The notes under the pieces are model-generated. The model was not told where the DNA came from. It saw only the letters and a program-made list of their open reading frames with translations, and did no database searches. From a phage: DNA of 64,000 bases. Position 1 is the first letter of the stretch; each line of letters begins with the position of its first letter. The stretch is taken from assembly GCA_037574385.1 (NCBI GenBank), contig GCA_037574385.1_4529.1; one strand, 5' to 3'. Made by a program: the position numbers and the translations under genes. Positions 293 through 63,422 of this stretch are shown one piece after another.

Positions 293-2379
293 TATCCTTG
301 GACAAATTTAAACGGAACCGATTCCAAATCCATTAAAGATGCTAACAGTTTCAATCCTTTAGGTGCACTGTTTATTTCTACGAATGAGGCAAAAGATACC
401 GGCTCATCTGATTCGATTTCACCCGTCATAGCAACCACCTCGCCTGTTTCCATGAGAACATCACCGTCGTAAATGACTGCTTCATCCAACTGGTCAGAGG
501 ACATGACTTCGGCTTGAATAAATTTAAGGTTGGATTCTAAACCTGCACCAGTGTCAGATGACGCATCTGTAATTTTATTTATCTGCAAGAGAATGCCTCT
601 AGGCAAAATAATTTCTTGCTCATTAGGGTGATTACTCAACTGTCCTGGATAAATCACGTTAACTTTATGAGCACCATCAATAGCCCATCCAACGTTAACA
701 CGGATTTGTTCTGGTGCATGCATAGCTGTTCTTACTTGACTAGGAGAAATAGTAACACCTTCGTCATTATTGTCAATGTTAAGCTCTTTGCGAACTTCTT
801 CAGGAGCAAGTCCAAGGGCAACGTTTTCTTTAAACCCGCCAAAAATAATAGGAGCTAATGAAGTAGAAACATAGTTTCTGAAGTAGAATACCTTATTTTT
901 AACCATTGCTTCATAAATAGGCATTCTGATAGACTGAGCTCTATACAACGTTAGTCCTTCAGGTAAACGGTCTCCGTTTAAAAACGCTGAATCAAGACCA
1001 TCAATAGCGCGTTTAACTTCATCTTCATCTGCAACATCGTAAAAATCTGGTTTATAACGTCCTAACAACATATTATTGATATCGGTATACGCAGAAGAGG
1101 CATATTCACGAATAGCTCGTTTTTCAGCAACAGAGTATTGTTTAGGGTCCCGATTCATTGTTATATTAAAGGTGCCTCTAGCCGATTCTCGTGCATAAGT
1201 ATACATCACATTAGACAAGAACGCTGATTTACGTTGTTTCCAAGTTTTTTCAGATACTTCAGCTAAAACGTCGTCAGCCAGTTGGAAATTATCTCGTCTA
1301 AAATCTTCAAACCATTCGTCTTTAATAGAGTCTGCAATTTCGTTTGCAGCTTCAACAAAAGCAGCTAATGCTTTAACAGATGTTGTTTTTTCGGTTTTAA
1401 TTTTCTTAGCAAACTTTTCTAAAGTTGGCTTAATAACACTACCATAAGAAACTTCATCAGCAAATCTAAAGGATTCATCAATACGATTATAAATCTTATT
1501 TTCGATATCAGCAACTAAAGTGCCTTTTGCTGTGGATGATGCTTGGGCTAGTACGATTTCATATGCTTCAGGAAGTAATTCGGCTGTAGCTGGGCCACTA
1601 ACTTCTTTAGCAGAATTTTCGTATTTCTGGAATAACTCACCTTCTTGGCGGTCAGCTTCTAAAGATTGGCTTGCTGCAATAGCACGACGAGAAATTTTAG
1701 TATGAGCAATAACAGGCTTATCTTTACGTTTTTCTTCTACAGCAGCAATAGAACCAGCGATAGCAGTTTCTTTGGTGACCGTTTCGCCGGTCTTTTTACT
1801 CACATAAACTTCGCCAACATCAGAATCTACTTTCGTGTACAACTCTGTGTTAATGTTAGGGATGCCTTTAATATCTTCAATGTTGGCATTTTTACGAACC
1901 ATCATCACATAGGTGTGTTTACCTGTGAATTGATACATTGCAGACAATACTTTAAAACGACCACCAGTTTTAGTAGAAACTAAACGAGCAAGAAGAGTTT
2001 GAAGCTGCTGACCACGTCCTTTCAATTTCTTGGTAGGGAATCGGAACAGAACTGCATCCATACGAAGAGCTTTAACCTGTTCATATACTGTATTGAAAAT
2101 GGTGTTGATTGCATCAATAGGAGCAGGACCAAGGCCATTTTTCAATTCAGCGAGATTACCCTTTTCAGACAGACTCATAATAACAACATGAGCATATTTA
2201 TCGCCAAGTTTAACTTGTTTTACAGCGTCGCCTTCAGAAAGGTAAGAGAATAAGCGAACTACGATGTTTGTATCGATATCACCAATTTTCCAGACTTGTG
2301 GAACTTTAGCTTTAGGGTTCAAATTGACGACAGGAAGACTGCCTTCAGATTCAAACACTTCATTTAATTGTTCAGACAT
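292..2379 (-). CDS. alt: Alt-like ADP-ribosyltransferase (packaged internal head protein)
   Basis: 695 aa; size and sequence character match T4 Alt (682 aa); lies immediately downstream of DNA ligase as in T4. Confidence 0.8.
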   Translation of the reverse strand: MSEQLNEVFESEGSLPVVNLNPKAKVPQVWKIGDIDTNIVVRLFSYLSEGDAVKQVKLGDKYAHVVIMSLSEKGNLAELKNGLGPAPIDAINTIFNTVYEQVKALRMDAVLFRFPTKKLKGRGQQLQTLLARLVSTKTGGRFKVLSAMYQFTGKHTYVMMVRKNANIEDIKGIPNINTELYTKVDSDVGEVYVSKKTGETVTKETAIAGSIAAVEEKRKDKPVIAHTKISRRAIAASQSLEADRQEGELFQKYENSAKEVSGPATAELLPEAYEIVLAQASSTAKGTLVADIENKIYNRIDESFRFADEVSYGSVIKPTLEKFAKKIKTEKTTSVKALAAFVEAANEIADSIKDEWFEDFRRDNFQLADDVLAEVSEKTWKQRKSAFLSNVMYTYARESARGTFNITMNRDPKQYSVAEKRAIREYASSAYTDINNMLLGRYKPDFYDVADEDEVKRAIDGLDSAFLNGDRLPEGLTLYRAQSIRMPIYEAMVKNKVFYFRNYVSTSLAPIIFGGFKENVALGLAPEEVRKELNIDNNDEGVTISPSQVRTAMHAPEQIRVNVGWAIDGAHKVNVIYPGQLSNHPNEQEIILPRGILLQINKITDASSDTGAGLESNLKFIQAEVMSSDQLDEAVIYDGDVLMETGEVVAMTGEIESDEPVSFASFVEINSAPKGLKLLASLMDLESVPFKFVQG

Positions 2380-2419
2380 AGTGTTTTCCTTTTAGTAATA
2401 ATTTATATTTATGCCAAAA

Positions 2420-2435
2420 AGAGCCCGAAGGCTCT
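2420..2435 (-). terminator. UUCG-tetraloop hairpin (AGAGCC-UUCG-GGCUCU)
   Basis: Perfect 6-bp stem with UUCG loop on the - strand transcript, just after an ORF stop. Confidence 0.5.
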
Positions 2436-2644
2436 TAATCCACAATCGGGAGCAAAGTACGATAAACTTCAAAATTAGGGCCTTTTTCGTACCCATTAAC
2501 GTTATCTACGAAAACCCGATACGAATTTTCATTAGGAAAATCTAATATAATCTGAGAGCAAGAGGTGGAAACATCTCCACCATCCTTCTTAGCTACAATA
2601 ACTGTTTCTAAATAAGCTTTCATTATAAACCTGTCTGGGACCAC
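2435..2644 (-). CDS. Hypothetical small protein
   Basis: 69-aa ORF between ligase and alt; start probably an internal Met (MKAYLE) because the tracked start overlaps the ligase 3' end. Confidence 0.4.
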   Translation of the reverse strand: MVPDRFIMKAYLETVIVAKKDGGDVSTSCSQIILDFPNENSYRVFVDNVNGYEKGPNFEVYRTLLPIVD

Positions 2645-4116
2645 GGTCCAAATACGTCTTCAAACGAATCCGCTTCTGTTTTATCAAAACGGAACCCTTT
2701 AATAATTGGAAGGAAAATACCTACAGTACCTTCACGGCCTTTAGAATGAACCCAACCATTACATTCGCAATCAGCAATACGTCCGATCAATTTACCTTCA
2801 CGAGCTTCGGTCATTAATCGTTCACGGTCTAAATCATGACGCTCGTCTAAAGGAATAAGAACCTTTACACCGTCAACTGTTTTATGAGTTGTATCTTTAA
2901 AACCTGAACCACAATCGGTTGTAATACGACGACAACGTGATACGAGTTCGACACCGCCTAATTTGTTAGGGTCTTTAGAGTGTTCATAGTATCCTACAAC
3001 TTCTAAAGCGATATCAATAACTTCTTTAAATTTAATTAGGTTCTTAGAGCGTTTGTTTTCCCAATATGAATCACGGTTTTTAAGGATAATACCTTCAAGA
3101 CCTTGGTCAACATATTTTTTATAAACCACTTTAGCTTCATCAAGATTACGAACTAACTGGTTTTCGATAGGTTCAATTCGTTTAAAGCCTTCAGCCATAT
3201 TTTCAAGAGCAGCAAAACGAACATCGTATTTCTGACCTTTAATTTTGCCATCAGAATAGACTTCATCTAAAGGAACATAGTCCCAGGCTTGAAGAACCAT
3301 ACCTTCCGCTTCTTTAGGAGAAATAGTCCCTTGAAGAGATTTATTTGCTAAACCATTTGAAGTGCTACGGTCTGCAACTTGTACTTCTTCGGATTCTTCA
3401 TTATCACCAAATAAGAACGACAGGTCATTTCCTGAGCTCACAGCCTTTTTAATATCAAATGAATGATAAACTAATTCACCATCAATTAAAACCCCATTAG
3501 GGTGTCTTTCACGAGCTTCTTTAGTCATTTCCATTAGTTCATCTGCTAATAGGGTAAGACCATGGTATTCGTTACCGGCGCGAGAAAAGAATTGAACACC
3601 ATCATCGCGAACTTCAGCGAAACAACGAGCACCATCTGCTTTTAATTGGGCAAATGCGGGCCATTTAATATTTTTAGTAATCAATTTCTCATCATATGCA
3701 GATGCTAACATCTGTGGTTGCAATTGAATAAGACCAGGCCACACCTTATTCGCGATAGACACTGAAGCACCTACTTCAAGGTCGCGCATCATTACACGAC
3801 GAAGGACTTCTACATCATCAGGTTTACCATCAGCGATATAACCCATGAGCTCTTTAATTGCAGCATTACCAGTGAGTTTACGAGTGGCTAATGTGAACTC
3901 AATAAAATCCAACATGTCATCTAATTCAAGAAGACCATATGCTTGGGACCTTTCACCTGGTCCTGGCCATTTCTTAATATAATACTGGATACCACGTGCA
4001 TATGTTAAACGATACACACGTTCAAGTAATTTGTTGTCCTTATTTTTCTTAAGGATTTCCTGTTTTGTTTTAGTAGAACCGATCGCAGCTATTTGGTTTA
4101 AAATATCTAAAATCAT
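2623..4116 (-). CDS. 30: ATP-dependent DNA ligase
   Basis: 497 aa; adenylation motif KADGAR (KxDG); strong overall resemblance to T4 gp30 (487 aa). Confidence 0.85.
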   Translation of the reverse strand: MILDILNQIAAIGSTKTKQEILKKNKDNKLLERVYRLTYARGIQYYIKKWPGPGERSQAYGLLELDDMLDFIEFTLATRKLTGNAAIKELMGYIADGKPDDVEVLRRVMMRDLEVGASVSIANKVWPGLIQLQPQMLASAYDEKLITKNIKWPAFAQLKADGARCFAEVRDDGVQFFSRAGNEYHGLTLLADELMEMTKEARERHPNGVLIDGELVYHSFDIKKAVSSGNDLSFLFGDNEESEEVQVADRSTSNGLANKSLQGTISPKEAEGMVLQAWDYVPLDEVYSDGKIKGQKYDVRFAALENMAEGFKRIEPIENQLVRNLDEAKVVYKKYVDQGLEGIILKNRDSYWENKRSKNLIKFKEVIDIALEVVGYYEHSKDPNKLGGVELVSRCRRITTDCGSGFKDTTHKTVDGVKVLIPLDERHDLDRERLMTEAREGKLIGRIADCECNGWVHSKGREGTVGIFLPIIKGFRFDKTEADSFEDVFGPWSQTGL

Positions 4117-6561: not shown

Positions 6562-6602
6562 TTTATTCTCCAGATGTTTAAGTTGTTTGTTGGTACAGGT
6601 CT

Positions 6603-6631
6603 ATAATAACATAACCTGTACCAAAGTAAAC
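6603..6631 (-). promoter_or_regulatory. Early promoter module with 9-bp inverted repeat flanking -10
   Basis: GTTTAC-N17-TATTAT; arms GGTACAGGT / ACCTGTACC on either side of the -10; SD GGAGAATAAAATG downstream. Confidence 0.55.
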
Positions 6632-24248: not shown

Positions 24249-25155
24249 TAATTACACTTGTTAATTTAGAAAGTCCAGATTTTACAAAGTACGAATAAAT
24301 CTTGCCTTTAGGTTGTGGTTTATATGAGTTATAATACTCTATAATGGTTGAAGCAATATTATCAGGGATATAATCAAAATCAATTAGAACCAAATTTTCT
24401 TGGTACCGTTTATATTCTTCTGCACTTAATAATACTTCAGCTTGAGAACGGTCATTAGCAATTGCTTCAATAATCGTTGTTTTCATGCTTGGAGTTCGTT
24501 CGCCTTCAACTCGAGTAAACCAGAAATCACCACGAACTCGAACAGACGCAACACCATCTTTACGGTCGCCTTTAAGAATTTTAGTCATGCAATCAATTTC
24601 GGCAGAACCATTCTTAATTTTAACCCATTTTTTCTGCGGTGGCGACCACTGTTTAACGTTAGGGTATTTGTGTAATTGTGTAAAGTCACCATCTGATGCA
24701 ACAATACACACCTTATGACCGGCTAATGACAAATATTTAGTTAATACACCGATATGGTCATCTGCTTCGTATTTGTCAATATCCATTACAACGTATGGCA
24801 TATATTTCTTAATCTCATCAACGACTTGATGGAGTGCAGTAAAATATCCTTCCCAATCCCACTTTGAAGCTTCACGATCGGTTTTACGATTTTTCTTATA
24901 ATAGTAAGCAAAGTCGCGTCGCCAATACCCAGAAGTAGCGTTATCCATGCACAATACAAATTTTGTATAACCTTGCTTACGGAACATCACTACGTTTTTA
25001 CGAATTGAATTCAAGATTACATGGCGAACCATCGGAACAGTAATTTTATCACCGTCTTCAAAGTTGTTTAATGCAGCTGCTAATGCAATGTTACTAAAGT
25101 CTGCAAGTGCAATACCTTCTTTGTAATCTTCATCCAACATCATTTCTAAATCCAT
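24238..25155 (-). CDS. rnh: RNase H / 5'-3' flap exonuclease
   Basis: 305 aa, same as T4 RNase H; divergently oriented from gene 34 as in T4. Confidence 0.8.
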   Translation of the reverse strand: MDLEMMLDEDYKEGIALADFSNIALAAALNNFEDGDKITVPMVRHVILNSIRKNVVMFRKQGYTKFVLCMDNATSGYWRRDFAYYYKKNRKTDREASKWDWEGYFTALHQVVDEIKKYMPYVVMDIDKYEADDHIGVLTKYLSLAGHKVCIVASDGDFTQLHKYPNVKQWSPPQKKWVKIKNGSAEIDCMTKILKGDRKDGVASVRVRGDFWFTRVEGERTPSMKTTIIEAIANDRSQAEVLLSAEEYKRYQENLVLIDFDYIPDNIASTIIEYYNSYKPQPKGKIYSYFVKSGLSKLTSVINEF

Positions 25156-43427: not shown

Positions 43428-45641
43428 TTATTTGGCCGCTTCCACGGCCTTCATGAATTTAACGATTTGAGCGACTTGTTCTTTAGAAAGAGTACCACGT
43501 CGTCCCATGTATTCTGACACAATATGATAATTGGTTTCGAATTCAATAACCATTTTATCATCATTATCGTAAGCATTATCTTTAAGCTTATCGAAAATTT
43601 TAGCACACAATTCTAACTTTTTATTCAGTTCTCTGTTAGTAGCACCTGAGAATCGATTCCATCCCCAACGATTATTTACCGTTGAGAGTTTTGCAAAATC
43701 TTTACTGATTTCTTTGTTTTTAGAGCTAAAATACTTACTAAGGAAGTTAAGCTCTTCGTTACGAGTAATATGATTCAAATAAGGCTGTGCTCTACGACTT
43801 GGTGATACATACTCATCATAATCCACTTTATCAATTAGCGTAATATAGTCATTAATTGATTTTTCGAACAAGCATTCTACTTCGCCAAGTTTACGAACTT
43901 TCTTAGCAATCTGTGGACGAACTACAGTGAACTCTTTAATACCTGACAAATCAGCAATACGGGTCAAGAAATTGGAGTCATAGTTCAACCAACCTTTATC
44001 TGCGTCAAGACATTCAGCATTAGAACGATTACGAACTATAGCATAACCTTGGATTTCATCTGCTTCACTTGCTGGAATAAAGAGGTCTTCTGATACCCAA
44101 ACATCGTTTTCATTCTTAAAGAATCGATGAGCACTTGGCGATTTAGGACGAGGCTCATTAGTCCGTTTCCTGACTTCAATCCATGGCTTAACGATTTGTA
44201 AAAGCTCTGAAGTCTTGTACATGTTAATGTTGTCGCCGTCAAAGATAACTTTAAGGCGTTCCAGAAGTTTCATTGCATCTTCGTCTGTAGGGTCAACGAA
44301 TAGTACGCTTTTACCAAAACCGCGTGGAACTTTACCGGTTAATTTAACCTCGTCTTTAGACATTTCAATTGAATTAAGAGCTCGCATTAATGGAACGCGT
44401 CCCTTAACGTCGTCAATAACAATTTCAACGTTTTTAATGTTAATGCCAATCAGGCTGTTAATTGAAATAGTTGATGATGAGCTACCACTTTCACGAATAC
44501 GACGAAGACGAGGGGATTCAACGATATCGTATACGACGCCAAGATTACACCACTCAGGCCCCATTTTAAAACGTTTATACAACTCAGAATAAGTTAGTTG
44601 TTCTTTAGAGTATTTCAGTGATTCAATATTAGACCCAGCCTTTTCCATGTATTTACGAGCGGTATAGCCAAGAGAATCAATTTCACGGAACACATGACGT
44701 GGGTATTTACAATCAATCCATTTCTTAGAATCTTCAGCGAACAATTTAGCATCGATTTCTGCAACGCGTTTATGGATATTTGCTACTGTACGTTTATCAA
44801 ACGACAATGCTTCACGAGACGGAGCTACATCTAGTTCACCCATAGGGAATTTAATATAAGCTGTAGTGCATCGTGTCATCATCCATGTTTGTTCTTTAAT
44901 AACACTTCCGATTGGATAAACAATACCACCATAAACAGCCATGATATTACCACGTTCACCCCGTGGAGCTTCCTTGGCCAAATATACATCGTCAAATTCT
45001 GGGAAGTATTTAATATCTTTAACACCACGAACTTCTGCTATATCACCTAAAGGACGCATAACATATGCAATTTCAGATGCGAACTTTTCAAAATCTTCTG
45101 GGTTAACCGGTACGACTACTTCTACACCCGTACGGTCATCAGGACCCATCTTATCTACAAAGGTTGGCTTAATTTGAGGACCCGTGTCATCTTGGTAGAT
45201 TACGTAACCACGAACTTCACCGTTGTGATAAGACGTAAGGTTAAACGTATCGGTATATGCTAGCGGAGCTTTAGAGCCGAGCCCGAATCCACCAATGAAA
45301 TCGTTGCTCGATGTTTTAGTTGAAGCAAAATATGAGTTATAGATTCCTGGCTCTTCGTCATTACCTCGAATAGTGAAATCACTCATACCAGGACCAAAGT
45401 CTCGAACTACAAAACGTGGGTCTAAACGACCTGGAGCCTGAACAATAAACTTATCAGTGCAACCGTTAAGAATTTGTCCATCAATACAGTTTGTGATTAA
45501 TTCACGTACACAAGCCAATTCTTTGTTTGTATAAAGGTCATTAGACAAAATCTTATAAACTTTGCTATTGCCTTGAATAGTGAATGCTGTACTCTTACCG
45601 CCTGAACCAATAATCGTTTCTTTAGCCGTTTCAATAATCAT
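43428..45641 (-). CDS. rIIA: rIIA protein (GHKL ATPase-like)
   Basis: 737 aa (T4 rIIA 725 aa); adjacent to rIIB. Confidence 0.85.
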   Translation of the reverse strand: MIIETAKETIIGSGGKSTAFTIQGNSKVYKILSNDLYTNKELACVRELITNCIDGQILNGCTDKFIVQAPGRLDPRFVVRDFGPGMSDFTIRGNDEEPGIYNSYFASTKTSSNDFIGGFGLGSKAPLAYTDTFNLTSYHNGEVRGYVIYQDDTGPQIKPTFVDKMGPDDRTGVEVVVPVNPEDFEKFASEIAYVMRPLGDIAEVRGVKDIKYFPEFDDVYLAKEAPRGERGNIMAVYGGIVYPIGSVIKEQTWMMTRCTTAYIKFPMGELDVAPSREALSFDKRTVANIHKRVAEIDAKLFAEDSKKWIDCKYPRHVFREIDSLGYTARKYMEKAGSNIESLKYSKEQLTYSELYKRFKMGPEWCNLGVVYDIVESPRLRRIRESGSSSSTISINSLIGINIKNVEIVIDDVKGRVPLMRALNSIEMSKDEVKLTGKVPRGFGKSVLFVDPTDEDAMKLLERLKVIFDGDNINMYKTSELLQIVKPWIEVRKRTNEPRPKSPSAHRFFKNENDVWVSEDLFIPASEADEIQGYAIVRNRSNAECLDADKGWLNYDSNFLTRIADLSGIKEFTVVRPQIAKKVRKLGEVECLFEKSINDYITLIDKVDYDEYVSPSRRAQPYLNHITRNEELNFLSKYFSSKNKEISKDFAKLSTVNNRWGWNRFSGATNRELNKKLELCAKIFDKLKDNAYDNDDKMVIEFETNYHIVSEYMGRRGTLSKEQVAQIVKFMKAVEAAK

Positions 45642-45653
45642 ATTTTTCTCTCA

Positions 45654-45854
45654 TCACAAGTTACGTTTAAAAATTTCTGCTACTTCAAGAAGTTCTTCTT
45701 TAGTAGCTGTATCGGTTTGTATTTTATATCGAATTTCTTTAAAGCGTTCTTTAAAGGACTCTGCTGACTCGATATCAAAAAATCTTTGGATAAGCCGGAA
45801 TTCCCGGAGCACTGCTTTATCAAAAAGTTCCAAGTCCACGTTATATGTTCTCAT
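45654..45854 (-). CDS. Hypothetical protein (rIIA.1 position)
   Basis: 66-aa ORF immediately upstream of rIIA. Confidence 0.5.
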   Translation of the reverse strand: MRTYNVDLELFDKAVLREFRLIQRFFDIESAESFKERFKEIRYKIQTDTATKEELLEVAEIFKRNL

Positions 45855-45879
45855 AATATTCTCTTCAGTAGATTCCTAG

Positions 45880-45930
45880 GGCACTATTACTAAAGACCAT
45901 ATAATCTATCATCTTATGTGTAATAGTGCC
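45880..45930 (-). other. 11-bp perfect inverted repeat (GGCACTATTAC / GTAATAGTGCC) separated by about 29 nt
   Basis: Lies between the glycosyltransferase stop and the rIIA.1 start; loop contains a TATAAT-like element. Confidence 0.45.
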
Positions 45931-45946
45931 TCAGGCGATTCAGGAT

Positions 45947-47047
45947 TTACGCTGTGAAGATTTTATCCCACATTGCAACAACTGCATCTCGGTTATACTT
46001 CTTCCATACTGCTTCAGCACGTTTAACTCGAGCTTCGTATGTGTCAGTGAATTCTAATACAGCTTTTGTGTAAAGCGCAACTACTTCTTTCTTAGGAGTA
46101 GAGGAATCAATTTCTACACGCACAGTATCTGGGTCATATTCGAATGTCGCATGCGGATAATCCTTAAAAACTAACTGAATTACAGGGACACCTTTAGAAA
46201 TGGCTTCAATAGAACTATTCTCTACCGTACCTGTGTCAGGACACGTATTAATAAGTGCTTTAGCTGTTTTAAGACGTTCCATAATTTCACTGTGTGGAGC
46301 ATCAATAATAACAGGATACTTAGCCGGTGGTGCCCATTTACTAGGACAGTATCCTGCGCCATTTTCGCCTAGTGCTTTAATCGCTTCAAGAGCAACATCA
46401 GTACGACGCATTTTAGTGTCATAACGTTGTGCACTAATAATCAGATCAGTCGCCGGAAGAACTTCAGGTTTCTCATTCAAACAAATAACCGGATAATCTT
46501 CGGCTTCAAACAACGGATTTGCTCGCCAATAATCATAATCAATTTTGTCAGTCAGACCTGAAGTCATATAACAATATTTGCGTTCAAATTCACGGAAGGC
46601 TTTAGTAGGAGCATAACTCTTACCACCGTTCTTATGAATTTGAATAGTCTGGTCCCAAATTTGAACAATGCCACGAGATACCGGCTCAAACGGTGTTGCC
46701 ATAAAATTCTTATGAACTTTAGAGAGACCTGCGTCTTTAATTGCCTGAACGGTTAGTTTAGTCGGTTCCATTGTAACAACGAAATCGTACTCATTAATGC
46801 CGGCTAGTTCAACAATCTTACGAGCCATAGTATAACTCATACCTAGACTGAATTTAGTCAGATGACCAACAGGATGATGATTAACCTTCCAATCACCAAA
46901 CGTGTCATTATCAAAGCCGATATAATCAATATCAGCACCGATGGACACAAGATATTTCAACACATTTAAATGTACTGCTTCAAGACCACCTTGTACACGT
47001 TCTGGGTTAAACGGGACTGCGCGAGATGGGATAAACATAACTTTCAT
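45947..47047 (-). CDS. GT-B fold glycosyltransferase (GT4-like); candidate DNA hypermodification enzyme
   Basis: 366 aa; N-terminal MKVMFIPSRAVPFNPERVQGGLE and C-terminal TCPDTGTVENSSIEAISKGVPVI resemble GT4 donor-binding motifs; sits where T4 carries gene 60/mobA. Confidence 0.6.
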   Translation of the reverse strand: MKVMFIPSRAVPFNPERVQGGLEAVHLNVLKYLVSIGADIDYIGFDNDTFGDWKVNHHPVGHLTKFSLGMSYTMARKIVELAGINEYDFVVTMEPTKLTVQAIKDAGLSKVHKNFMATPFEPVSRGIVQIWDQTIQIHKNGGKSYAPTKAFREFERKYCYMTSGLTDKIDYDYWRANPLFEAEDYPVICLNEKPEVLPATDLIISAQRYDTKMRRTDVALEAIKALGENGAGYCPSKWAPPAKYPVIIDAPHSEIMERLKTAKALINTCPDTGTVENSSIEAISKGVPVIQLVFKDYPHATFEYDPDTVRVEIDSSTPKKEVVALYTKAVLEFTDTYEARVKRAEAVWKKYNRDAVVAMWDKIFTA

Positions 47048-47074
47048 AATTAAGCCTTATTAAAATTAAAATGA

Positions 47075-47090
47075 AGCTCCCGAAGGAGCT
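47075..47090 (-). terminator. UUCG-tetraloop hairpin after gene 39
   Basis: AGCUCC-UUCG-GGAGCU overlapping the gp39 stop. Confidence 0.5.
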
Positions 47091-48907
47091 TAGGACATCC
47101 ATTCTTTACGAAGTTCTGAATCATCACCCAACAACATTTCAAAGAGTTCTTTCCAATTTTCAGGAAGTTTAACTACGTCGTACACAGGGTTTTGAATCAT
47201 TTCACGATATTCTGACTTTTCAAGGGAGCCCAATCCCTTGATGTATCGAATACTATGCTTAGGCAGTGTATCTTTAGCTTCTTCATACTCAGCTACAGTA
47301 TAAAACCATTTTTGAGTTTTGCCGATTTGTGCAATAATTACAGGTGTTTTAACAAAGCGAATACGTCCTTGTTCAAACAATTCAGGCCAATTACTAAAGA
47401 AAGCAAGCAAAGCCGGATAGATACTTCCAAGACCGTCATGATCGGCATCGGTCATAATTGCAATATTACGATAGTTCGTATTCTCTGCCTTTTCACCAAG
47501 AATAAGACCTGTGATAGCACAGATATCAAAGAGCTCTTTGTTCTTCATCATATCGGCATATGACATACCCCAGCTATTCATCACCTTACCACGTAATGGG
47601 AATCCGCCGTGTAGTTCACGGTCACGAACATCAATGAGATATCCAATTGCCGAATCACCTTCTGTTAAAAACAATGTCGTATCTGCATCTTTACCGCATT
47701 GGTTAGCTTTAATATGCTTATGAACCTTAGCTTTAGTTGCCTTTTTAGCTGCTTTAGTTTCTGCAGCCTTTTCTGCTGCCAATTTACGAGCTAATGCTGC
47801 TTCAACAATAGGCATAATCAAGGCTTCGTTTTTAAGAAGTGCCTGAGCAATTTTCTTAGCATCTAATTGGATATGATTACGAATATCACCATACGTTGAC
47901 GTTAAACGTTCTTTAGTCTGAGAATCAAAACGCATGTTGCTCATGTCTCTAATAAACATCAACATTGTGAGACATTCTTTAACACGAGCTTTAGTGACTT
48001 CAATACCCTTATATTTCTTTTTAATACCCGGCAAAAGATGTTCGCAAATATCATCCATTACACATTCAACATGATGACCACCATTTTTAGTATGGATGTT
48101 ATTCACATAAGTTAAATGACGGAAGCCATCCGGTGATGTTGTGAATGCTATAGAGACTTTATCATTTTCTTGAATGATGTTATCTTCACCAAATTGTTTA
48201 GCAAATCGTTTAAAATTGCCATCAACCTTTTTACCATTAAATGTGAACTTGATATCAGGATAAACGACTGCCAATGTTTGAAGTCGGTCTAAAGTAATAT
48301 CTAAATAAATTTGAGATAAATTATGCTCTTCAAATGAAGTGAAATCAGGAGTGAAGATTACTTTAGTGCCTTTACCTTTAGATTTCTTAGAAGACCATGA
48401 TTTGTTTTCCATTCCGTTTGAACAGTTAACAGTGATTTCATTTTCGCCATCTGACGTGATGCCTGTAAACAACGTAGAGAAGATATTAGTTAAACTACTC
48501 CCGACGCCGTTCATACCACCTGTCTTGCGTTCAGAGTCGTCACCAAAGTTACCACCGGCCTTTGGAATAGTCCAGGCTGCTACAGGCCCAGGAATTTGTT
48601 CACCCGTTTGGTCGGTAACTAAACCTTGAGGAATACCACGTCCGTTATCTTCCACTGAAACTTGATTATTTTTAATTTGCACATCAATTTTATTTGCAAA
48701 CTTAAATGATGTACGAATAGCTTCATCAACCGAGTTGTCAATAATCTCATCGATTAATTTAACCAGACCAGGAACATATTCAACTTGTTGATATTTACCA
48801 AACAAAAAACGCTCATGTGCTTCTTTAGCTGAAGAACCAATATACATACCACTACGTTTCTTAATATGTTCTACATCTGACAGTACCTTAATTTCATTTT
48901 TAATCAT
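47090..48907 (-). CDS. 39: DNA topoisomerase II large subunit, fused gp39+gp60 (GyrB-like)
   Basis: 605 aa in one ORF; GHKL ATPase N-terminus (DNSVDEA, GRGIP) plus Toprim region; T4 splits this into 39 (516 aa) and 60 with a translational bypass. Confidence 0.85.
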   Translation of the reverse strand: MIKNEIKVLSDVEHIKKRSGMYIGSSAKEAHERFLFGKYQQVEYVPGLVKLIDEIIDNSVDEAIRTSFKFANKIDVQIKNNQVSVEDNGRGIPQGLVTDQTGEQIPGPVAAWTIPKAGGNFGDDSERKTGGMNGVGSSLTNIFSTLFTGITSDGENEITVNCSNGMENKSWSSKKSKGKGTKVIFTPDFTSFEEHNLSQIYLDITLDRLQTLAVVYPDIKFTFNGKKVDGNFKRFAKQFGEDNIIQENDKVSIAFTTSPDGFRHLTYVNNIHTKNGGHHVECVMDDICEHLLPGIKKKYKGIEVTKARVKECLTMLMFIRDMSNMRFDSQTKERLTSTYGDIRNHIQLDAKKIAQALLKNEALIMPIVEAALARKLAAEKAAETKAAKKATKAKVHKHIKANQCGKDADTTLFLTEGDSAIGYLIDVRDRELHGGFPLRGKVMNSWGMSYADMMKNKELFDICAITGLILGEKAENTNYRNIAIMTDADHDGLGSIYPALLAFFSNWPELFEQGRIRFVKTPVIIAQIGKTQKWFYTVAEYEEAKDTLPKHSIRYIKGLGSLEKSEYREMIQNPVYDVVKLPENWKELFEMLLGDDSELRKEWMS

Positions 48908-48956
48908 GTTGTCTCCTCGTTATGAAGGTATTCTATCATCCGAAATCTAAAGCAAA

Positions 48957-48972
48957 AAGGGCCGAAGCCCTT
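48957..48972 (-). terminator. UUCG-tetraloop hairpin
   Basis: AAGGGC-UUCG-GCCCUU. Confidence 0.45.
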
Positions 48973-50800: not shown

Positions 50801-50859
50801 ATTATTCTCCTCTGGTTGATACGGTTATAATATCAAAACCAGAGGAGAAGTAAACAACT
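50801..50859 (-). promoter_or_regulatory. Early promoter module with 11-bp inverted repeat pairing spacer to SD region
   Basis: GTTTACTTCTCCTCTGGTTTTGATATTATAACCGTATCAACCAGAGGAGAATATAATG; arms CTCCTCTGGTT / AACCAGAGGAG. Confidence 0.5.
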
Positions 50860-55608: not shown

Positions 55609-56217
55609 TCAGTAACTGACAATAGTCAGATTCCAGATTGTATAATTTCCATCTTGAATAATAGAATCTACACGCAGTGTAGTCCCTATAGGGAGCATAA
55701 ATTCACATTCGTCAGATATAAGTCTAGCATTAGACCGTCTTGTCGCTTCAGGGAAAGCTCCATTGAACTCACAAGACGGCGCAGCCAGAATCATATTAAG
55801 CATATGTTCACGGAAGTTGAAAGCAAATGGTGCATCTTTGATGCAGAACATATTAAATGTTCCATAAAAATTATATGAAGCAAAGTTACGTGCTACACCG
55901 AACACCGGGCTGAAGCTCATTACTCTGTCAAATTTAATAATACTACCAACGCCTTTATCATCAAGTGTGGCCATAGTTTTCTTAGAGATTCCACGATACA
56001 TTGTCTCAGGAACAGAAGACGACCAATTTCTACGAACAATTGCACTTAAATCTTGTTGGATGCTATCAGGCTTGTTTTCCATACACTGCCACAGTATACT
56101 TTGTTCAATGTCGCTGAATTGACTATCAATTTCGTACTGCAATACATCTTGATATTCGGGGTTTTGAGCACGACGAACCATTTCTTCAATTTCACACTCG
56201 TTATACGGCATAAACAT
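55609..56217 (-). CDS. Mod-type ADP-ribosyltransferase (ModA/ModB family)
   Basis: 202 aa (T4 ModA 200 aa, ModB 207 aa); ART R-S-E signature: YRGIS, SFSPVFG, and E-x-E (DECEF). Only one copy is present. Confidence 0.7.
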   Translation of the reverse strand: MFMPYNECEIEEMVRRAQNPEYQDVLQYEIDSQFSDIEQSILWQCMENKPDSIQQDLSAIVRRNWSSSVPETMYRGISKKTMATLDDKGVGSIIKFDRVMSFSPVFGVARNFASYNFYGTFNMFCIKDAPFAFNFREHMLNMILAAPSCEFNGAFPEATRRSNARLISDECEFMLPIGTTLRVDSIIQDGNYTIWNLTIVSY

Positions 56218-63367: not shown

Positions 63368-63422
63368 TTTGTTCTCCAGTAGTTGATAGGTCTATAATAA
63401 CACAACTACTGGAGAAGTAAAC
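63368..63422 (-). promoter_or_regulatory. Early promoter module with 14-bp inverted repeat pairing spacer to SD region
   Basis: GTTTACTTCTCCAGTAGTTGTGTTATTATAGACCTATCAACTACTGGAGAACAAAATG; arms TTCTCCAGTAGTTG / CAACTACTGGAGAA. Confidence 0.5.

Follow-up and report, generated by a model that had tools for sequence, protein, structure and literature searches.

A 61-nt hairpin between the putative arabinosyltransferase gene and rIIA.1 of Mosigvirus phages, a possible intercistronic mRNA element

The placement of a stem-loop soon after a stop codon, within a polycistronic transcript and without a run of U, is familiar from the REP sequences of Escherichia coli (malE-malF) and from the CUUCGG hairpins of bacteriophage T4. 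In these systems the downstream cistron is still expressed and the sequence of the loop is apparently unimportant. The RNase III signals of bacteriophage T7 (R0.3, R1.1 and others) are irregular hairpins of about 60 nt with an internal loop, located between the cistrons of a long phage transcript. Imperfect palindromes are also the substrate of a mutational process, template switching, by which a concerted change of two bases perfects the repeat, and Ripley-type quasi-palindrome mutational hotspots were first described in T4 rII. Finally, the early-promoter/stem-loop cassettes of T4-type phages (PeSLs) are intergenic inverted repeats with promoter elements, found in variable gene slots (Arbiol 2010, PMC2839356; Comeau 2014, PMC4122927).

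The stretch of DNA analysed here (64,000 nt, hereafter the window) is from a Mosigvirus, an RB69-like T4-type phage: a 1-kb query around the locus under study retrieved 155 phage records at 95-99% identity, RB69 included. Between the genes for a glycosyltransferase and for rIIA.1, the window carries a hairpin that invites comparison with each of these systems. As with REP and the T4 CUUCGG hairpins, the structure follows closely on a stop codon in a predicted polycistronic transcript, lacks a U-run, would leave the downstream cistron expressed and has a loop whose sequence appears unimportant. Unlike REP, it is present as a single copy and belongs to no dispersed repeat family. It differs from the UUCG and GNRA tetraloop hairpins by its 61 nt and by an internally paired 29-nt spacer, and its stabilising role is putative. 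The resemblance to the T7 signals extends to size, irregularity, internal loop and intercistronic position; RNase III is however not known to matter in T4-type phages, and cleavage of the Mosigvirus hairpin is putative. With PeSLs, and with three promoter-embedded repeats of the window itself (at 6590, 50805 and 63372), it shares an intergenic location in a variable gene slot, at the border of a genus-specific gene, and inverted arms of 11-14 bp around a spacer of 13-29 nt, whereas it has no promoter elements and no Shine-Dalgarno sequence in its 3' arm.

We consider this hairpin an unannotated member of the familiar class of T4-type intercistronic hairpins, unusual only in its size and in its internally paired spacer. 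Its existence is best explained, with a probability of roughly 40%, by a passive role in the mRNA as exonuclease barrier and insulator, the hairpin having been acquired with the transferase cassette.

Architecture and transcriptional context of the hairpin

The original prediction had placed in the transferase-rIIA.1 gap a perfect 11-bp stem with a loop of about 29 nt. The coordinates and the arms are correct (GGCACTATTAC at 45880-45890 and GTAATAGTGCC at 45920-45930, with 29 nt between them), and the element proved to be larger. The arms can be extended to 16 nt (45875-45890 and 45920-45935), of which 14 are complementary, and the spacer is itself self-complementary, with 5 + 3 pairs and a 5-nt apical loop. 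The entire element is thus a quasi-palindrome of 61 nt. Its lower stem comprises 4 + 11 pairs with one A/C mismatch; an internal loop of 4 and 2 nt follows, then an upper stem of 5 + 3 pairs with a G/G mismatch, capped by the apical pentaloop GAUUA. The 11-mer of the arm has no other site in the window, even with one mismatch allowed, and a 130-nt blastn query around the hairpin hits one place per genome in 153 of the 155 records.

The gap measures 92 nt, in a window that is mostly coding. The base of the hairpin stands 11 nt past the transferase stop codon, and its other end is 20 nt ahead of the rIIA.1 AUG and 8 nt from the Shine-Dalgarno-like GAAGAG. The genes on both sides lie on the minus strand (Table 1). 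The transferase is a homologue of RB69 ORF003c, which has been proposed as the hmC-arabinosyltransferase in a paper on RB69 arabinosylation that does not mention the hairpin (PMC6024577).

Table 1. Coordinates of the hairpin, of its parts and of the neighbouring features in the window
Feature	Position	Strand	Remarks
rIIA	43428-45641	-	
rIIA.1	45654..45854	-	66 aa; Pfam PF24210, E = 2e-30
Shine-Dalgarno-like GAAGAG of rIIA.1	45861..45866	-	invariant in 15 genomes; mostly unpaired in 271-nt fold
Mosigvirus-specific segment (~1.2 kb)	45864..47089		UUCG hairpin, transferase ORF and long hairpin; no DNA homology in T4, JS98, S16, JD18, P479
61-nt quasi-palindromic hairpin	45875..45935	-	pair probabilities 0.9-1.0; -27.2 kcal/mol; z -6.5; rank 2/25,574 segments of 70 nt
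3' arm of perfect 11-bp stem, sense RNA	45880..45890	-	GUAAUAGUGCC
Upper stem-loop from 29-nt spacer	45893..45915	-	relies on U-G pair; -5.4 kcal/mol on sense strand, -0.4 on the other
5' arm of perfect 11-bp stem, sense RNA	45920..45930	-	GGCACUAUUAC
Glycosyltransferase, homologue of RB69 ORF003c (putative hmC-arabinosyltransferase)	45947..47047	-	366 aa
UUCG-tetraloop terminator-like hairpin	47074..47091	-	directly after gp39 stop codon; other cassette edge
gp39, fused 60plus39 topoisomerase subunit	47090-48907	-	
Nearest upstream promoter-like site	48930..48954	-	MotA box TGCTTTA, then TAGAAT; before gp39

No promoter-like site was found between 48954, before gp39, and 43575, where a MotA box precedes rIIB. 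These two are also the nearest hits of the MotA-box search, which gave none at the hairpin, and a sigma-70 scan detected no promoter in or near it. The published promoter predictions for RB69 agree, with Pm:5538, ahead of gp39, and Pm:156, and none in the ORF003c-rIIA.1 gap. An intrinsic terminator was likewise rejected: the 3' arm is followed by CUAGGAAUCUACUG, without a U-run, the terminator scan was negative at the hairpin, and the TransTerm prediction for RB69 (PMC1524935 supplement) places a terminator at 3649-3662, after gp39, and none in the gap. Since neither rIIA.1 nor rIIA has its own promoter here, their expression would require read-through of the hairpin, which cannot then be an efficient terminator. 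From this layout, it would be internal to a read-through transcript running from gp39 through the arabinosyltransferase and rIIA.1 to rIIA; a literature search returned no transcriptome, 3'-end map or half-life for any Mosigvirus.

Upstream of gp39, a UUCG terminator-like hairpin (48957-48972, minus strand) is followed at once by a MotA middle promoter, TGCTTTA-N12-TAGAAT. This arrangement (48930-48972) is like the 'promoter-middle stem-loops' (PmSLs) described for phage nt-1.

That the repeat is unlike both the UUCG hairpins and the promoter cassettes found elsewhere in the window, as had been noticed from the start, is borne out by its pentaloop, by comparison with the cassettes and by the promoter scores. 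On a position matrix built from 22 promoters of the window, the hairpin region scores -12.0 (plus strand) and -18.6 (minus strand), against 23.6-52.2 for the training sites. T4-type early-promoter cassettes or PeSLs recur at many intergenic sites of a genome and have TTTAC(W) at -35, TAYWAT at -10 after a spacer of 17-18 nt, and a conserved downstream box. Membership of this class was rejected, as the single-copy hairpin lacks the TTTAC -35, the TAYWAT -10 and the conserved AGACCTATCAAC box; the absence of this box and matrix scores far below those of true sites also dismiss a decayed cassette. A promoter in the loop is suggested by eye (TATAAT on the plus strand, TATTAC...TATATG or GATTAT on the minus strand), and the sigma-70 scan, the matrix and the MotA-box search were all negative for it. 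With an apical loop of 5 nt (GAUUA or AAUUA) on an irregular stem of 23 pairs, the structure is no UUCG or GNRA tetraloop hairpin. Nor does it sequester a ribosome-binding site in the manner of T4 e, soc or I-TevI: the Shine-Dalgarno sequence and the AUG are outside the stem, and the former pairs with a probability of 0.2-0.5 and with no fixed partner.

Other classes were rejected more briefly. A comparison with Rfam 15 gave only noise at the hairpin (mir-361, 14.7 bits against a threshold of 70, E = 8.4), and no family reached its gathering score anywhere in the window. A MITE-like element was discarded for its single copy and its flanks, GAATC on both sides here with the left copy GAATA in the majority of genomes. 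The T4 replication origin oriA maps elsewhere, near soc. A mini-ORF within the hairpin (AUG 45912 to UGA 45865, 15 codons) has no Shine-Dalgarno sequence, and 6 of 7 observed substitutions would be non-synonymous. Integron attC sites follow the R''/R' consensus RYYYAAC / GTTRRRY; this consensus is not matched, and the boxes would fall at the outer ends of the hairpin instead of the inner ones. Translational bypass of the T4 gene 60 kind was set aside for lack of matched take-off and landing codons flanking the hairpin.

Stability of the fold and its variation within Mosigvirus

Folded as sense (minus-strand) RNA, the 61 nt reach -27.2 kcal/mol with a z-score of -6.5, against -22.1 kcal/mol for the antisense RNA. 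The 70-nt segment that contains the hairpin ranks as the second most stable among 25,574 segments of this length, both strands of the window included, and the only better one lies within an ORF; outside coding sequence, no local fold of the window is more stable than the hairpin. In a fold of 271 nt its pairs retain probabilities of 0.9-1.0, robust whatever the context. As DNA, either strand is predicted to form a moderately stable hairpin (-10.9 and -10.0 kcal/mol, z about -4). The spacer contributes to the strand difference: alone, it folds at -5.4 kcal/mol in the sense strand and at -0.4 kcal/mol in the other. On the sense strand, 2.3% of the shuffles of the spacer alone are equally stable, and 6.5% give an equally stable hairpin when the arms are fixed and the spacer is shuffled between them. 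Because the sense fold is 5 kcal/mol better and the spacer folds through a U-G pair, sense RNA is favoured over DNA, although not conclusively.

The single more stable 70-nt RNA fold is at 55721-55790 (minus strand, -29.3 kcal/mol), with an inverted repeat at 55735-55779. It sits inside a 202-aa ORF (55609-56217), with no tRNA call by ARAGORN and no Rfam match.

The variation of the hairpin was followed in an alignment of 15 sequences, 13 of them distinct, which are 94-100% identical with a local divergence of at most 5.5%. The same fold is kept by all variants tested, with -23.3 kcal/mol in RB69, -26.2 in ESCO47 and -34.0 in AV114. Variable columns are 4 of the 15 unpaired ones against 4 of the 46 paired ones. 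Two of the four paired changes preserve pairing (G-C to G-U and G-U to G-C), and two break it, one as an A/C mismatch in the 11-bp stem of RB69 and the other at the terminal pair in two genomes. In ESCO47, the most divergent genome, 4 changes fall in the hairpin at a cost of only 1 kcal/mol; a substitution confined to one of the two arms is seen in RB69 and likewise in ESCO47. Polymorphism affects the apical loop, the internal loop and the bulge, which argues against a sequence-specific ligand of the loop and for a purely structural role. The 13 distinct sequences, too similar for a covariation analysis, present no double changes. The single substitutions observed cost less stability than random ones do (mean +1.07 against +2.32 kcal/mol, P about 0.09), so that the bias toward keeping the fold is weak.

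One variant is of another kind. In Escherichia phage AV114, an adjacent CT->TC change on the sense strand (positions 495-496, corresponding to 45878-45879 of the window) gives rise to a perfect 16-bp palindrome of -34 kcal/mol. An imperfect palindrome perfected by a concerted change of two bases is what template-switch correction leaves behind, and the AV114 change would be typical of it. Such correction is a mutational behaviour and not a function, and shows only that intrastrand pairing is possible during replication.

The border of a genus-specific segment

DNA homology to T4, JS98, S16, JD18 and P479 breaks off with the stop codon of gp39 (47090-47096). T4 is homologous again from 45863, the four others from within rIIA.1, and the hairpin is located 12 nt inside the rIIA.1-side end of the segment that is specific to Mosigvirus. 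The slot from gp39/60 to rIIA.1 varies in content across all the genera examined. In T4 it is a 54-nt gap with a textbook early promoter (GTTTAC-N17-TATAAT). JD18 combines a small ORF with a terminator and a MotA-box middle promoter, and in JS98, S16 and P479 there are one or two small ORFs; the start of rIIA.1 overlaps an upstream ORF in S16 and P479. The 588-nt gp39-rIIA.1 stretch of JS98 is unannotated (EF469154.1, record positions 883-1470). It contains a small ORF resembling JD18_266 (MRKYWVTL... against MQRYWITL...), a terminator and an early promoter, then an ORF up to rIIA.1.

The repeat was also looked for in genomes lacking the glycosyltransferase, the finding named beforehand as speaking against a link between the two, and none was found. 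All 155 Mosigvirus records carry both, with the hairpin at full length in each; no record has the hairpin without the transferase, and no other phage genus has it. A search of IMG/VR with the exact stem returned Mosigvirus contigs only. Across IMG/VR, the JGI metagenomes and the GTDB genomes, the matches were near-identical Mosigvirus contigs and one Prevotella hairpin (GTDB), with no empty site, donor genome or more divergent copy among them. The association of hairpin and transferase comes from one clade and thus counts as one evolutionary event. The suggestion that the repeat marks the junction of a glycosyltransferase insertion holds as far as its location goes, at the edge of the genus-specific segment; no sign was seen that the repeat itself took part in recombination.

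Acinetobacter T4-like phages encode homologues of the transferase, about 42% identical; the surroundings of the gene differ there, and ordinary UUCG hairpins follow it. In Acj61 and Maestro the homologues form tandem pairs of paralogues (record positions 1501-3800) between the dCMP-hydroxymethylase region and gene 40, with a UUCG-tetraloop hairpin separating the two members of a pair. Hairpins without a U-run, shortly after a stop codon and before the next ribosome-binding site, are common among related phages: they occur after gp39 in JS98 and JD18, and after the transferase homologue in Acj61 and Maestro. Within Shigella phage JK45 (MK962757.1, 2523-4123), the transferase matches in two pieces over a span of 1601 nt, against the usual 1098 nt; this isolate may have an insertion of about 500 bp, or a duplication, in the gene or beside it.

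For annotation and for engineering, such as the deletion or swap of the cassette, the hairpin is useful in that it precisely marks the border between the transferase cassette and conserved sequence. A bolder proposal sees in the hairpin a cis element left over from the transfer of the arabinosyltransferase cassette into the slot between gp39 and rIIA.1. The cassette would be bounded by the UUCG and the long hairpins, and the long one would now serve also as an RNA processing or stability signal, setting the dose of the enzyme that makes the arabinosyl-hmC DNA of the RB69 type. We hold this for quite improbable. If it is true, T4-type phages would shuffle genes for DNA hypermodification in a hairpin-bounded way that differs from the promoter/stem-loop cassettes described to date.

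Possible roles and origins

In the reading that we prefer, the hairpin would be a structural element of the minus-strand polycistronic mRNA. From the sizes of ribosome footprints, it lies just outside those expected for terminating and initiating ribosomes, and would stand between the ribosome that terminates on the transferase and the one that initiates on rIIA.1. Transcription would not be stopped by it, since rIIA.1 and rIIA depend on read-through. After endonucleolytic cuts, the stem would passively block 3'->5' exonucleases, allowing the transferase segment to outlive the downstream part of the message. As an insulator, it may further prevent the ribosome-binding site of rIIA.1 from pairing with upstream sequence. 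It probably came or arose with the transferase cassette, which would have displaced whatever stood before rIIA.1, in the variable slot where T4 has its early promoter. The arrangement of mRNA-stabilising hairpins, a stable stem-loop downstream of a cistron in a longer transcript, is found here, with read-through deduced from the sequence; an effect on mRNA stability is putative. Several observations speak against the barrier: retention of the repeat at a local divergence of 5.5% or less is also predicted by neutrality, the alignment shows no covariation and only a weak bias toward milder substitutions, RB69, the type phage, itself has a disruptive mismatch in the stem, two genomes break the terminal pair, and the size and the large, internally paired loop depart from the usual UUCG or GNRA hairpins of T4-type phages. 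Should the hairpin control the transferase message, it would offer a handle on an enzyme thought to give RB69-like phages their arabinosyl-hmC DNA and their genetic isolation from T4; otherwise, it is another intercistronic hairpin in a phage group rich in them.

A serious rival to the barrier, though in our view a doubtful one, is a neutral quasi-palindrome at the junction, the by-product of the illegitimate recombination or template switch that placed the transferase cassette: a young scar without function, kept by low divergence. The distance of 12 nt to the homology breakpoint with T4 and the restriction to one genus, always alongside the transferase, agree with such an origin, as do the absence of covariation and of a significant excess of structure-preserving substitutions, and the stem-breaking change in RB69. 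The CT->TC change of AV114 bears the signature of intrastrand template switching, and such events would thus shape the sequence here. However, an origin at the DNA level does not predict that the transcribed strand folds better by 5 kcal/mol through G-U pairs. It also leaves aside the self-complementarity of the spacer, the neat placement between two ribosome footprints, the small loss of stability in ESCO47 despite its 4 changes, and a variability of unpaired positions about threefold that of paired ones.

Cleavage by host RNase III at a site of the T7 kind is unlikely. The enzyme would cut an irregular helix of about 25 bp, separate the transferase from the rIIA.1-rIIA mRNA and leave a protective 3' hairpin on the former. 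In overall shape the hairpin does resemble the T7 R-sites: it has about 60 nt, and an internal loop separates its lower stem of 15 pairs from the upper one of 8. Stacked across this small loop, the 15 + 8 pairs amount to roughly two helical turns of mostly double-stranded RNA, as is typical of RNase III processing sites. It is also intercistronic, without terminator or promoter features. Against this stands the processing of T4-type mRNAs, for which no major role of RNase III is reported; a review of T4 post-transcriptional control contains no occurrence of the name.

Translational coupling is still less probable. Here the hairpin would clamp UCUUCA, at the end of the transferase ORF, to UGAAGA, in the Shine-Dalgarno region of rIIA.1, until terminating ribosomes melt the helix. 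The minimum-energy fold of 121 nt does pair 45960-45955 with 45867-45862 around the hairpin, and the overlapping rIIA.1 starts of S16 and P479 set a precedent. In the 271-nt fold, however, the clamp helix is gone and the Shine-Dalgarno sequence is largely free, with pairing of 0.2-0.5 and no dominant partner, so that translational occlusion is not favoured. Furthermore, the hairpin touches neither the Shine-Dalgarno sequence nor the AUG, and both 6-mers are invariant.

A chance inverted repeat in AT-rich non-coding DNA is very improbable. Five distinct perfect inverted repeats of 11 bp or more, with loops no longer than 40 nt, are present in the window, against about one 11-mer match in dinucleotide shuffles of the same 64 kb, and four of the five fall in the small non-coding fraction. 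Comparable imperfect long-loop repeats of 14-15 nt occur at 24721, 38979 and 49322, all within ORFs, and the same 11-mer arms with a near-equal spacing have turned up by coincidence in an unrelated Prevotella contig. Chance does not, by contrast, account for a site that falls in a 92-nt gap of a mostly coding window, nor for the pairs beyond the 11-bp core, on its outer and inner sides, which take the 61-mer to its z-score and its rank. The inverted repeat is probably more than chance, if not overwhelmingly so. We take the element as real and not accidental, the 11-bp core alone being insufficient proof.

The Prevotella repeat (MAG CALGRN010000206.1, 2440-2503) is an 18-bp perfect inverted repeat, CAAATACGGCACTATTAC ... 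GTAATAGTGCCGTATTTG, with a 28-nt spacer, terminator-like and placed after a 674-aa ORF. It has the 11-mer core in common with the phage hairpin, and its spacer and flanks are dissimilar. By our calculation, about 0.7 such exact-stem matches are expected by chance in the 596 Gb of GTDB genomes, and we judge the likeness to be a coincidence.

The least credible reading is a DNA-level protein site or recombination signal, with a dimer on the 11-bp arms or a structure-specific enzyme on a cruciform: the perfect arms, the moderately stable DNA hairpins of both strands and the slot of genome plasticity are in its favour, and it is countered by a single copy in the genome, by the dissimilarity to the promoter cassettes of the phage, the elements for which shuffling has been described, by substitutions of RB69 and ESCO47 in one arm only, by the lack of a conserved target-site duplication and by a strand asymmetry and a spacer pairing that favour RNA. 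The protein-binding site raised in the original prediction is not supported either, given arm centres 40 bp apart, an unusual spacing for half-sites, a self-complementary spacer, a polymorphic loop and the better fold of the transcribed strand.

The promoter cassettes of the window show a construction of their own. The early promoters at 6590-6624, 50805-50849 and 63372-63416 (minus strand) each hold a perfect inverted repeat of 11-14 bp, whose 5' arm fills the -35/-10 spacer after TTTAC and whose loop contains the -10 element (TATTAT). At 50805 and 63372, a GGAG ribosome-binding site is located within the 3' arm; read-through transcripts would therefore sequester this site, whereas those started at the cassette would not.
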